A stretch of 36,479 nucleotides of DNA. Source: Elusimicrobiota bacterium (GTDB lineage Bacteria > Elusimicrobiota > Elusimicrobia > UBA1565 > UBA9628). Below, in pieces: positions 24,001-27,810 of this stretch. The stretch spans positions 1 to 36,479 of the forward strand of contig DAHVNA010000020.1 in assembly GCA_027319565.1 (NCBI GenBank), in the 5' to 3' direction. The first letter of the stretch is position 1; each line of letters begins with the position of its first letter. Made by a program: the position numbers.

Positions 24001-27000
24001 CCAAAGATACCTTGAGGACCTTGGATGAGTCAAAAGCGAAAGTGCTTTTTATCGATTCTCAGATATTGGATTTAGAGCCGGATTCGATGGCGGTCATCCT
24101 TCTTCCGCCCGGGAAAAAACGGGAGGATTCGGTGTCTCTTAAACGCGGAAGCGTCTTTATCGGACACGCGAAAGTAATGACTCCGTCGGCGACAATCACG
24201 CCCAAGGCTCCGCATACGGTCTATTCGGCTAAAATTAGGGAAGACGCAAGCACCTTGGTCCGGGTTTTTTCCGGAGTCGCGACGGTGAGTGCCGAAGGGC
24301 AAAACGTCGATGTTCCGGCGGGCATGGAAACAACGGTTCCGCCGGGTTTGTCCGCCGGGGTTCCTCAAAAAATTCCGCATTGGAAGGAGTTTCAGTCCGA
24401 GGCACAATTGGCCATGTCAAATCCTGCTCAAGGCTCTCGAAAATTGCGCTCATCTGGAAACGGAGAGTCGGGGTCGGTTTTGGCTGGTCCTGGGGTAGAG
24501 GAAAATTCTTCGGGCCAAGCCCAGGCTGGAAATATGTCCGCGAGAAATAATTTGGGCGCGCGCGCCGGCGTAGGGACAAAAGCCTCTAGCGCTTCGCCTT
24601 CCGCCAGTCTTCAAAAAGAGATATCGGACCTCTCCATTGGAAACCCCATTTCCGGATATCGGCTCCAGGTTTCTATCGCGAGCGATTTCTCATCTCCGAT
24701 TTTAGACAAGGTCTTTGACTCCGATGAAAAAGTCGATATCCAAAGCCTGGGGCTTAAACCGGGCCAGTATTGGTTTCGATTGGCGACGATAGATCTCTTA
24801 GGCGAACAAAGCCCGTTTACTTCTCCGCGCCAATACACGGTTTTTCAATAAACCTAAATAACGACCGCTTGGCTAAGGTTGAATGACTGCGGTTTTAATG
24901 TAATCCAGATGCGGGAAATCTGCCTTAAGATAGGCGTTTCCCTGTTGTTGAACTTGGCTTTGATCGGGGCCCGGTCCCGAGGGAGGGCCGTCCCCGTAGC
25001 CGTTAAAGAGAGAATCAACCACGTCCATTCCTTGAGATACTTTCCCGAAAGGAGTGAATCCCATTGAATCCAAAAACGTGTTGTTGCCGTAATTGATGAA
25101 GACCTGGGTCGTGCGGGTGTTGGGCCCGGCGGTGGCAAAGGAAATGGTTCCCCGTAGATTAGAATGGTTGGTCGCTAAGTCATCCGGGATCTTGGCGTTA
25201 AACCATTTCGCGTTGACTTGCGGATCTCCATTGATTCCGAATTGAACCATGAATCCCTTAACGACGCGGAAAAATGCGTCTCCATTGTAGAACCCGATTT
25301 TGACGAGATTATAAAACCGGTCCGCTCCGCTGGGAGCCCAGTCGCGATGGATTTCAAGGGTAAAATCTCCCTTGGTCGTCGTAAAAAGCACGTGATAGGT
25401 CTCCGGGGCCTTGAGATTGTCCATGTCGGGATTTAAGAGAGGATTGTTCGAGGCGGCATTGGGAGTCTGGGTTTGAGAAGATGCGGGCGAACCGGGTTTA
25501 GGAGACGGGCTTTTGGTTTGCTCATGGCAGGCGGCCAGAAAAAATGCGCAAGCGCACAGCGTTATTGTGGGTAGAATATATTTTGTCATGAGAAGAGTCT
25601 AGCAAAAGAGATTTAAAAATTTCAATTTTTAGCCCGCTCTATGGAGACGCAACCGATGCGAACTATTCTAGAACCTCTTTAAGCTAATGTCCACGCCACC
25701 CAACAACTCAGGCCTTCCCTTTTTCAAAGTGTTGCACTAGTATATTGAACTTGGGGCCGACGCCAAGGCAGCAAGGAAGCATTCCAATAATACACGGGAG
25801 AGATTGCTAAAATACTGAAGATGAAAAAAAGTTTTGACCCGAGGAAAATGATGGAACTGGCTGTCAATGTCATGCGCCAGTCCGTCTCGGAGCCGCGAAA
25901 AGACGACAAGGCGAGTCCGCTTGTCGGCGCAGCGCTCTTCAAACCCGACGGCGCCATCGAGACGGCCTGCCGGGGCGAACTCCGCCACGGAGACCACGCG
26001 GAGTTCACGCTCCTAGAAAGAAAAAATCGCGGGAATAAACTGGACGGCTCCGTCTTATTCGCCACGCTCGAACCCTGCGCCCCGGATTCGCACCATCCTC
26101 CGAAAATGAGCTGCACCGAACGCATTGTGTTGTCGCGAATCAAGGAGGTCTGGGTGGGAATTGAGGATCCCGATCCCAAGGTAGACCGCAAGGGGATCAA
26201 ATTCCTTCAAGATGCTGGCGTCAGGGTGCACATGTTCGACCGCGACCTTCAGGAAGTCATCCGGAAGGCAAACAAAAATTTTCTTAAGCAAGCGCTTCAG
26301 CGAGCCAAGGCGGTGCGGGGCGCAAAGCAATTAAAAGGAACCGCGCTTTCTTCGCTTGAAAACGCTTTGGTTGTTTCCACCATTAAGGATTTTTCAGGAG
26401 AGGCCCTTAAACGATACCGTTCTCAGGCCAAAATCACGACAAGAATCGGCTCACAAGCTTTCAATCGCCATCTGCTGCGGCAGGGGCTGTTAAAAGAGGA
26501 AAAGGGTCGACTGATCCCGACTGGATTCGGCTTTCTTCTCTTCGGGAAAAAACCCCGCGCAATTCTTCATCAGGCCGGTCTCCTGGCCACCATTCATTAT
26601 CCCAATGGCAAAGATGAACTCTTGGATTTTGACGAACCGTTGATCCTGATCCCCGATCTAGTCGAAAAATGGCTCGGCGATAAACTGCCCAACGTCATTG
26701 ACCGAAGCCATATGCAGCGCCAAACTCAGCCAGCTCTCCCCTCTGAGATGGTGCGCGAAGCCGTGATCAATGCCCTCATTCATCGCGATTACGATATCAA
26801 AGGAGCAAAATGCCAACTCGTGGTCACGGAGAACTCCATCACGATCAAGAGCCCCGGCGCTCCGCCGCCACCTATCACAATAGAACAACTGAAATCATTC
26901 AACGCTCCCATGCTGAGTCGGAATCCAGGGTTGCATTACGTCTTCTCTCACATGGGACTGGCTGAAGAACGCGGCCTAGGAGTCAAGACCTTGAAGTCCG

Positions 27001-27810
27001 ACGCGGAAGAGGAGGGGTTGCCCTTGCCCAGGTACAGCTTTGAAGCCCCCTATCTTGCGCTCACTCTTTATCGAAATTCGGAAGCGCCTTCGCGAGCGCT
27101 GAACCAGGAAGTGCTGGATTCGATAAACAAGGCTGAGCGGAAAGGATGGCAGTGGCTGACCACGAAGGGCAAAGCCAAATCCAGCCAGTATGCGGTCGCC
27201 ATGGACATCGATAATCGTACCGCACGACGACATCTTAATGGGTTCGTTGAACTCGGCATGGCCAAAAAAACCGGATCAGGACCAGCCACTGAGTATGAGG
27301 TGCTTTAAGTGAATCTACCGCAACCGGACAAGAAAGCGGACATTTTGTCCGGATTCAGACAAGCGCCTATCCGAGCCAAATCGAGGATCCCGCCATTTTG
27401 GCGGGATAACATCCGGACATTTTTCCCGGATTCGCTTAAGCCGACGCTTGATCAAAGACCCGCGAGGCGTTCGCTGCGTTATTGCCGGACTAACCGAAGA
27501 GAAAAACGAGCTGGAAGTCGTGTGCCGAATTCTTGCCTCTGGAAAACTTCAGGTAATAACGGTATACTTGAGAAAGATAATATGACCGCTAAACAAATCA
27601 TTAATCGAGCTGATAAGCCGATGGCCGCGGTAGTGGCGCGCCCATTGAGCAAGACGCTTTTCTGCACTACGCTGGCACTACGCTTGAATTTCAGTCAATT
27701 AGACATAAGTATAGATTAGTATTGTTTTATAAGTAGTTTTTTGATTCTGGAGAGGTGGCCGAGCGGCTTAAGGCGACGGTTTGCTAAACCGTTGTATCGG
27801 GTAAACTGGT

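Follow-up and report, generated by a model that had tools for sequence, protein, structure and literature searches.

A single open frame on the plus strand of the window (by which we mean the whole 36,479-nucleotide stretch of DNA analysed) encodes a 495-residue protein composed of a deaminase, a GHKL ATPase and a winged helix, and behind its stop codon lies a DNA array matched to that winged helix. The array is new here and had been missed by the genome-wide survey's note. Sequence comparison suggests a mobile deaminase gene, a candidate defence that DNA of the cell itself may hold back and that viral decoys may jam. The features of the locus are as follows (coordinates, strand, description and basis).

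24873..25589, minus: cyclophilin-type PPIase gene, conserved left flank, outside the system (annotation and comparison)
25630..27736, no strand: inserted segment with this gene and array only, a decayed tRNA-Ser island (comparison with G005, G001 and three of four runs)
25821..27308, plus: deaminase-GHKL ATPase-winged helix gene, 495 aa (open frame, Pfam, AlphaFold2 model, structure matches)
25833..26300, plus: RibD-like Zn deaminase domain, aa 5-160 (H59, E61, C86 and C98 invariant, as is R51)
26343..27080, plus: N-terminal subdomain and PF13749 GHKL ATPase, aa 175-420 (Pfam, 3LMM structural match)
27108..27305, plus: C-terminal winged helix, aa 430-495 (model: helix 465-477, wing 481-494)
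27322..27354, plus: first unit of the cognate array, with half-sites (core CCGGACA) in two direct copies at a 12-bp period and then one inverted copy (1 match against 0 in 100 shuffles)
27387..27407, plus: perfect 'LN'-type palindrome (core CCCGCCA), relic of the previous winged-helix cassette
27411..27431, plus: second cognate palindrome, degenerate (motif comparison)
27512..27748, no strand: island right end (92% identity to the integrase-tRNA stretch of G003)
27749..27841, plus: tRNA-Ser(GCT), integration target (a second copy of its 5' part stands at the left end of the islands in G002 and G003)

The survey's note had read 485 residues in the same frame, but its start, 25851, is the second ATG; 25821 is likelier because relatives align from residue 1-8. 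The fusion it described is real and consists of a RibD-like Zn deaminase, a PF13749 module and a C-terminal winged helix. Pfam places dCMP_cyt_deam_1 at residues 11-113 (2e-9) and HATPase_c_4 (PF13749) at 328-415 (6e-15). An AlphaFold2 model of the 495-residue protein (pLDDT 91.7, pTM 0.81), which replaced an earlier one built on 27 sequences (pTM 0.43), matches DIP2311/3LMM (Z 23.8, rmsd 3.1, 244 aligned) and RibG 4G3M (Z 20.6, rmsd 2.5, 145 aligned), and the deaminase fold is also near TadA (Z about 15). The zinc motifs are those reported, H59-A-E61 and P85-C86-x11-C98, with eleven rather than twelve residues between the cysteines. The ligands H59, C86 and C98 and the catalytic E61 are kept in 120/120 relatives, K95 and D116 are invariant or nearly so, and the GHKL residues E313, N317, S344, G346, N368 and G387 are invariant in the same number; the PF13749 module is a GHKL ATPase switch, a point that had escaped the note. 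The protein has the chassis of a Schlafen-ATPase ('Schlatpase'), and a deaminase stands in place of the nuclease, in agreement with the replacement already proposed: the Schlafen AlbA_2 nuclease domain (PF04326) gave no match at E<=0.1, and the N-terminus is the deaminase. Schlatpase traits found are PF13749 itself (E 6e-15), the 3LMM match, the C-terminal HTH and the RM association; the catalytic pair E313/N317 corresponds to RzAgo E314/N318 by motif only, the RzAgo sequence not having been aligned. One copy (L037) is fused in frame behind hsdS, and a weak search of 216 candidates of 868-2475 aa returned no longer fused forms.

The recognition helix carries R466 and the specificity residues R469/R470 ('RR' type). 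Among relatives, each array unit has three half-sites and usually two units lie 62 bp apart, a spacing found in 29/51 and 24/28 spacings. An array score of at least 16 of 18 was reached by 58/76 downstream regions, against 0/76 shuffles and 2/72 upstream regions, and at one mismatch the 2.03-Mb genome has no palindrome of this kind besides that of unit 1 in the window. Across 73 loci the array bases follow the helix residues: at +3, R/K goes with G (28/28), Q/L/E with C (43/43) and M with T (2/2), and at +4, R goes with A (44/45) and N with C (24/24). Held-out metagenome loci obeyed the code in 47/51 cases at +3, four breaking the rule, and in 47/47 at +4; residue pairs not present in the first set (RN, RY) had the sites predicted, and the array threshold failed in 11/72 held-out loci. 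Independent pairs on the N-terminal tree agreed with the code in 7/7 cases. Because array bases covary with recognition-helix residues, the winged helix very probably binds the array beside its own gene. Most units (77) lie within 300 bp downstream and seven lie upstream, in four loci. The arrays of L045 and L049 stand 90-212 bp before the gene, where most other loci have theirs downstream, and the last half-site of L049 is about 23 bp before the ATG; from this placement the array is predicted to work at either gene end.

Helix and array are exchanged together as one cassette. Six pairs of proteins have 90-97% identity in deaminase and ATPase and 29-56% in the winged helix. The window protein is 83-86% identical to its nearest relatives in the deaminase and 43-48% in the winged helix, which was swapped in from another lineage; L107, the nearest relative tested, has an LN helix, the type of the palindrome left at 27387..27407. 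The recognition code of this winged helix of 65 residues would be a natural one, set by two residues and spanning at least eight site types.

In the window, the gene sits in what is left of an island, an insert of 2.1 kb at a tRNA-Ser site. In the same-genus genomes G005 and G001, position 25629 joins directly to 27726/27736, and in contigs of three of four runs about 30 other letters separate it from 27736/27737. A search of the window, right island end included, turned up no integrase remnant. The note had placed the gene, correctly, between a PPIase gene and a tRNA-Ser, here tRNA-Ser(GCT), and had raised as an objection that it stands alone without an RM neighbour. The placement holds, but it has little weight against island cargo because islands integrate at this site: two sister species have nothing there and a third has an RM and Schlatpase island; G003 has a Schlatpase in the equivalent tRNA-Ser island. 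Regarding distribution, the 79 GTDB loci at 49-77% identity were recovered as reported, and the claim of more than 25 phyla is matched by 27 named ones, three archaeal loci included. The figure of 2841 clusters at E<=1e-20 was not reproduced; of the 8000 candidates scored, 2837 reach E<=0.001. Mobility is borne out by patchy presence across related genomes: the full-length gene occurs in 2/40 of these, in 0/5 of the same genus and in 3/301 genomes of the phylum (own included), about 1%. The neighbourhoods of relatives also support RM or defence-island cargo, with RM genes within 6 kb in 37/79 loci and none in 42/79 (a raw count, without a random-gene background) and on both sides in 20/79. The RM types are Type I, ResIII/N6_N4 methylase pairs and DUF1156 methylases, and often the gene is alone; in four loci RloC-like AAA_13 genes occupy the slot as well, and no metabolic neighbour recurs among the loci examined. 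The gene behind the array also differs (hsdR, methylase, radC, integrase, tRNA). Copies are cut or interrupted in 12/79 loci, and some hosts can evidently do without the function. Neither the 72,556 plasmids nor the 50,697 phages searched contained a full-length copy, and viral contigs gave a single, deaminase-only match.

The array unit itself is present in phages. The exact unit occurs in 30 distinct phage contigs or contexts, of which only seven are virus records at least 90% complete, and a cognate winged helix is encoded in 0/30 of these records (positive control run). In the AT flanks, which were not part of the search, 136/180 positions match against 45 expected. Half-sites at the cognate 5/3 spacing occur in 12 distinct phage contexts, and no other spacing exceeds two; a control half-site, imperfect in that it resembles a common coding repeat and has 34/68 matches in two contexts, gave 0/68 at this spacing. 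Among the phage matches, L197 and L199 lie in repetitive coding DNA and L210 resembles a bacterial island relic. Sites of the CCCGCC type are not enriched in phage contigs (2/14 at cognate length). By eye, four contigs (L200, L209, L230, L234) seemed to stack several site types; as a general claim this was dropped because the count of other-type half-sites around phage units, 22 against 16.2, shows no enrichment.

A role as conflict or defence effector is probable. Our main reading, to which we give a probability of about 0.45, is a one-gene conflict effector on a DNA leash, acting by abortive infection or addiction, with the phage sites as decoys. The winged helix would dock on the array adjoining its own gene, as the covariation indicates, and the few molecules docked on an intact array would be kept inactive; given an effector of this kind, that the bound state is the off state is slightly favoured. 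Destruction or loss of the array, through phage degradation of the chromosome or loss of the island, would free these molecules, and ATP-driven GHKL oligomerisation would turn the deaminase on, by analogy with the nuclease of Schlafen-Argonaute, in which RzAgo E314/N318 contact Mg/gamma-phosphate and defence requires both (10.64898/2026.05.29.728809). The freed molecules would deaminate a nucleotide, poisoning the pool, so that the infection is aborted or the island-less cell killed. Phages with their own copy of the unit would re-dock the protein, which would select for frequent swaps of helix plus array. No RNA holder of the effector was listed. The upstream arrays abut the start codon in an operator-like manner, an observation counted against the leash. 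Also weighing against it are the 42 loci with no RM gene nearby, the held-out loci that miss the array threshold or break the +3 rule, the lack of phage enrichment for the CCCGCC type and for other-type half-sites, the few near-complete virus records, the doubtful phage matches (L197, L199, L210) and the broken copies. Schlafen-HisKinase fusions tried in E. coli fell outside the two of seven that protected (PMC13056530), and this was counted against a defence effector. As for the substrate, the deaminase pocket looks mononucleotide-like, and D116/D118 align with the RibG residues that hold both ribose hydroxyls (PMC8256712). A free nucleotide is somewhat favoured; a guanine-type substrate yielding xanthine nucleotides is doubtful overall, tRNA or other RNA rather unlikely, and DNA improbable, as is any other substrate.

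Other readings of the array and the enzyme have to be weighed. It is unlikely, though the main rival, that the array is an operator through which the protein represses or roadblocks itself or the gene behind (hsdR, methylase, integrase), in the manner of a C protein, the deaminase being a toxin kept low or a nucleotide sensor and a phage signal activating it via the ATPase. The arrays of L045 and L049, with a half-site so near the ATG, agree with this, as do the paired sites 62 bp apart, which fit looping repressors, the arrays just before hsdR in Type I operons, and the paired operators and possible roadblocks of C proteins in the available part of PMC12707154. However, most arrays follow the stop codon, with unrelated genes or a tRNA beyond them, and both enzymes keep their catalytic residues without exception. 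Phages keep the unit, even though drawing a repressor away from a toxin gene or from hsdR would harm them. The phage-borne arrays are left unexplained if the protein is a PrrC-like guard that binds Hsd or Mod/Res subunits and fires on phage inhibition, the array serving only autoregulation or positioning. Such a guard would account for the position between RM genes in 20/79 loci, which is that of PrrC, for the L037 copy behind hsdS (compare the Schlatpase-HsdS fusion) and for the RloC-like AAA_13 genes in the same slot; association with unrelated RM types, often with none, at more than 50% identity is hard to fit to a single protein partner, and we consider it quite unlikely.

An autoregulated housekeeping or sanitising enzyme, performing a riboflavin-type step or removing damaged or methylated nucleotides arising from RM activity, would suit the nearest structures (RibD/RibG), the adenine methylases among the RM neighbours and the high conservation across phyla. 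The protein lacks the PCxHxG(R/K)TPPC motif, the Asn/His pair and the reductase domain of RibD, the host has a separate two-domain RibD, and neither the rarity of the gene in the phylum (about 1%) nor its lack of a recurrent metabolic neighbour fits; moreover, the speed of the specificity swaps and the copies in phages imply conflict, which makes this very improbable. Least probable is a site-anchored DNA or RNA editor, the note's base-editing idea, in which binding to the array would direct the deaminase to DNA close by (hsdS, for example) or to phage DNA as a local mutator. The deaminase has a conserved basic surface (R26, R55, R67, K68, R91, R106), and its nearness to TadA together with a predicted DNA anchor would suit editing. 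Against this, gene GC follows flank GC (r 0.80, 92 loci), 19 close gene pairs have an ordinary transition spectrum (A/G 811, C/T 722), half-sites decay without a single dominant change, D116/D118 match ribose-hydroxyl residues, and phages would drop a site that attracted editing. From the note's reading as a whole, the mobile RM/defence-island deaminase is retained; DNA as substrate and the value for base editing are not supported, given the mononucleotide-like pocket and a local mutation signature that was not found, and neither is the idea of a ready base editor.

The findings give the HTH of the commonest prokaryotic Schlafen chassis, counted at 60,692 proteins in a cited preprint, a testable job, and the proposed leash may account for cloned genes of this chassis showing no defence. 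Non-coding DNA decoys would be a phage counter-defence found by sequence alone, and conflict effectors would gain a RibD-derived, possibly guanine-directed deaminase clade. In its fullest form the idea is speculative, with odds below even: DNA would act as the antitoxin, a swappable winged helix tethering a GHKL-gated deaminase that chromosome damage frees to convert guanine to xanthine nucleotides, with gene-less phage arrays as decoys, and the leash might extend to Schlatpase-HTH proteins by the tens of thousands, their tetrapeptide repeats being, on this view, in-frame binding sites.

Among known systems, RADAR RdrB and Cad1 are deaminase defence effectors that act by nucleotide deamination, and we know of no effector of this class held by a cis DNA array. 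The dCTP deaminase, AvcD and Kongming KomA share the proposed outcome, nucleotide deamination in infection, and differ from the present protein in clade and regulator, as far as the available parts of their descriptions go. PADLOC 2.0 gave no deaminase-domain match on the window protein, only GHKL-region matches to Argonaute-associated models; some other fusions have weak partial dCTPase matches (E 1e-3 to 1e-5). PrrC and RloC combine an ABC-ATPase with a tRNase (anticodon nuclease), a pair that Pfam did not find in the window protein, which has GHKL, deaminase and winged helix instead. Both share with it a place inside RM operons and a backup logic, and RloC reacts to host DNA breaks (PMC12707154). 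RibD/RibG are the top sequence and structure match of the N-terminal domain and share HAE, PC..C, the D-P-(D/N)-P ribose loop and a basic Zn-loop residue. The fusion differs in lying outside riboflavin operons without a reductase domain (RibD_C was not found by Pfam, and TIGR00326 scores 62.8 bits, below its cut-off of 156) and in having the Asn/His substrate pair (PMC3668577), absent along with the RibD motif, replaced by S/N/D at 32 and the invariant R51. The Schlatpases (AlbA_2 and PF13749, with or without HTH; pSlfn-HisKinase-HTH; DIP2311/3LMM; the SLFN-pAgo RzAgo) have in common with it the GHKL ExxxN pair, the C-terminal HTH, Type I RM or BREX-related cargo or HsdS fusion, horizontal spread and, in G003, the same tRNA-Ser island. 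They carry a Schlafen tRNase where this protein has a Zn deaminase, and the available part of the Schlatpase literature does not describe a cis array, a readable helix-base code or phage copies. Finally, RM controller (C) proteins also have an HTH, paired cognate sites by their own gene and specificity groups; in contrast to their operator upstream of the gene, the sites here are mostly downstream (77 units against 7), two intact enzymes are fused, and each unit has three half-sites.

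The window gene encodes a single protein in which, as the genome-wide survey's note had proposed, a zinc deaminase (aa 11-113) and HATPase_c_4/PF13749 (aa 328-415), both identified by Pfam, are joined to a C-terminal winged helix.

25821-27308, + strand: deaminase fusion gene, single open frame of 495 aa

An AlphaFold2 model based on 120 sequences (pLDDT 91.7, pTM 0.81) ends in a helix-turn-helix plus wing, and matches both the Schlafen-ATPase protein DIP2311 (3LMM; Z 23.8, rmsd 3.1, 244 aligned) and B. subtilis RibG (Z 20.6, rmsd 2.5, 145 aligned). In the family search, 2837 of 8000 scored candidates reached E<=0.001. 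A GTDB scan gave 106 relatives, of which 80 were kept, corresponding to 79 loci at 49-77% identity; 67 are full-length and uninterrupted. These loci fall in 27 named phyla, in agreement with the more than 25 reported earlier. The family is rare inside any one lineage, with the full-length gene present in 2/40 related genomes and 3/301 genomes of the phylum.

In two genomes of the same genus (G005 and G001) a PPIase gene leads directly into tRNA-Ser(GCT), and the identical empty join was recovered in contigs of three of four sequencing runs. At this site the related species G002 has a relic with an integrase fragment, and G003 a 16-kb island:

G003:C92:2900-19050 (L098): complete island at the 5' end of tRNA-Ser, Type I restriction-modification (RM) with PIN, AAA_21, Panacea and a Schlatpase (Schlafen AlbA_2 plus PF13749 GHKL ATPase); order: duplicated tRNA 5' end, Schlatpase, hsdM, hsdS, PIN, AAA_21, Panacea, hsdR, integrase

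Because the site is empty in G005 and G001 and filled in G003, whose island shares its right end with the window at 92%, the lone window gene is a remnant of a defence island rather than a housekeeping gene. The gene does stand alone, as previously remarked, but its lack of an RM neighbour no longer counts against a defence origin. An internally deleted copy 3' of a spoVG gene (G001:C14:99421-99757, L100) keeps the first ~27 codons, the winged-helix end and two array units. Elsewhere in the window, a 6082-aa open frame (34-18282, +) takes up the first half, short dispersed repeats with many copies in its own and sister genomes lie at 27812-28078 and 25709-25760, and a 240-bp insert is bracketed by two copies of 13 bp from the tRNA 3' end (27826/28066).

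Neighbour clusters were labelled by Pfam scans of representatives. In 37/79 loci an RM gene on the same strand is found within 6 kb (a raw count, without a random-gene background), as it is in 27 of the 42 loci with no less than 4 kb on either side; two loci, L055 (flanked by two DUF1156 genes) and L056, were left out of the RM count. RM genes occur on both sides in 20/79 loci. The other 42/79 loci have no RM gene within this distance. The co-cargo includes AAA_13 (RloC-like), patatin-CD-NTase, GmrSD, SIR2-HerA, HipA-DUF3037, ABC-3C, HamA and OLD genes; radC is found 3' of the gene in 10 loci, and in L037 the fusion follows hsdS in frame. In L041 a Schlafen AlbA_2 fragment (L041:9688-10053) lies immediately 5' of the deaminase gene, with tRNA-Ser(GCT) 630 bp downstream, which may record the replacement of one cassette by the other.

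Downstream of the stop codon the family carries a DNA array, whose unit consists of three 9-bp half-sites, two direct (12-bp period) and one inverted after 3 bp. Two units, 62 bp apart, are usual.

27322-27354: array unit of the window, its only occurrence in the genome

Scoring covered 82 loci, 76 with an intact gene end; the threshold of >=16 of 18 was reached by 58/76 downstream regions, versus 0/76 shuffles and 2/72 upstream regions. L045 and L049 have matching arrays upstream instead. In the 73 loci with an array consensus, base 5 tracks recognition-helix residue +3 (R/K with G, 28/28; Q/L/E with C, 43/43; M with T, 2/2) and base 7 tracks residue +4 (R with A, 44/45; N with C, 24/24), while Y/F/L at +4 pair with A at base 8 (4/4). 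Of 80 held-out metagenome loci, 8 were skipped, 11 fell below threshold and 61 were scored (5 duplicating the first set); the two rules were obeyed in 47/51 and 47/47, and residue pairs new to this set had the predicted sites. In a 64-row tree built from the first 420 residues the helix type has switched no fewer than 22 times, with agreement in 7/7 independent pairs (p 0.016). Linkage alone would account for co-inheritance, but not for the concerted change of six half-sites or the correct new-pair predictions. Helix and array travel together as a cassette: in six close pairs identity is 90-97% as far as the ATPase but drops to 29-56% across the winged helix, and a third unit of different type survives in 13 loci. 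The window gene combines an RR helix and CCGGAC sites with a leftover LN-type palindrome.

A second copy in one genome (L104:7634-9550, G024:C54) is extended by a C-terminal domain of 130 aa, belongs to another helix type (QR) with matching array, and has several Schlatpases around it. Units at L008:9517, L062:464 and L241, located 5' of a gene of other helix type or lacking a nearby cognate gene, are orphan sites in bacteria. By eye, several of 14 other PF13749 frames have 10-12-bp repeats 3' of the stop or in-frame tetrapeptide repeats. Among Schlatpase paralogues (G000:C28 and C31, that is L193 and L194; L084, L103, L104), 10-12-bp tandem repeats stand 3' of the stop codon or form in-frame tetrapeptides 5' of the winged helix, and probably follow the same self-site principle.

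Exact units also occur in IMG/VR phage contigs (9, 15 and 20 for three site types; 30 distinct contexts). AT letters next to the half-sites, absent from the query, match at 136/180 positions versus 45 expected. When the spacers were left free, 12 distinct contexts had the cognate 5/3 geometry, whereas none of the other geometries, out of 90, exceeded 2; a control half-site had this geometry in 0/68. The units lie 3' of ribonucleotide reductase genes, beside capsid, GroEL and polymerase genes, or inside tRNA clusters; a few matches fall in repetitive coding sequence or in what looks like an island relic. No family domain was found within 2.5 kb, and 0/30 unit-bearing records (7 at least 90% complete; control run) encode the winged helix. 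The CCCGCC type was not enriched in phage contigs, nor were other site types near phage units (22 vs 16).

Sequence analysis demonstrates a fusion with intact active sites and an island origin, and also the array, its base code, the swaps and the phage copies. The helix very probably binds the array, and the protein is quite likely a conflict effector. Counter-evidence is that Schlafen-HisKinase fusions, included in a set of seven tested constructs, were outside the two that protected (PMC13056530 and a preprint). We propose that the winged helix docks on its own array, that the docked protein would be kept silent and released when the array is lost, and that phage copies may act as decoys. 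Silencing by docking with release on array loss, to which we give a probability of about 0.45 overall, would explain position independence, swaps and decoys together. The array could instead be an operator, which would suit the two upstream-array loci and the array position before hsdR but leave its retention by phages unexplained; we regard this as rather unlikely.

Every zinc and catalytic residue of the deaminase domain is invariant in the family, yet the domain is not RibD. The PCxHxG(R/K)TPPC motif and Asn/His pair given as RibD features in part of PMC3668577 are both replaced, R51 being invariant instead; the RibD reductase domain is missing, and the host genome encodes a separate two-domain RibD. 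According to sections of PMC8256712, RibG D101/N103 hold the 2' and 3' ribose hydroxyls and K79 binds phosphate. A free nucleotide is favoured as substrate because D116-P-(D/N)118 aligns with D101/N103, and K95 (conserved in 116/120) lies near K79, one residue out of register. From the pathway in those sections, the amino group removed by RibD would originate from N2 of GTP, which makes a guanine nucleotide the most parsimonious guess, with tRNA as a possible alternative. The earlier suggestion of DNA editing gained nothing from a search for an editing signature, which found none. The clade is a mobile domain. It has 541 representatives under 1e-30; in the best 150 of these the GHKL module is present in 86, long flanks of another kind in 28, and the remaining 36 consist of fragments or the deaminase by itself. 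One clade protein carries the PADLOC candidate PDC-S65 as fusion partner. Proteins P0198, P0207, P0244-P0270 and L187:4282-5316 join the deaminase to domains that are unrelated and for the most part lack annotation (PDC-S65-like, tandem winged helices, membrane helix; a viral contig included), which marks it as a roaming effector domain.

The literature searched, with most subscription journals outside it, held no description of the fusion, the array or DNA decoys, and absence in print is not established; main-text parts of Iyer 2011 (PMC3239186) do not mention the fusion. Schlafen-kinase-wHTH proteins are listed as backup effectors in BREX loci (part of PMC12839542), and portions of the reviews PMC12707154 and PMC13434031 provide context only. 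The closest relatives are described in sections of 10.64898/2026.05.29.728809, where PF13749 is a GHKL ATPase, E314/N318 contact Mg and gamma-phosphate, tetramerisation is ATP-driven even without the Schlafen domain, defence requires ATP hydrolysis, the name Schlatpase is coined for the Schlafen-GHKL pair, and Type I RM operons contain stand-alone and HsdS-fused forms. Since PF13749 is this ATPase and the family's E313 and N317 are unchanged in 120/120 sequences, the window protein is a Schlatpase chassis with a deaminase in place of the nuclease, although a Schlafen domain, required for membership, is absent from it. The protein is a variant of the Schlatpase kind, and its cis DNA module would represent a new principle of regulation if it really works like a leash.
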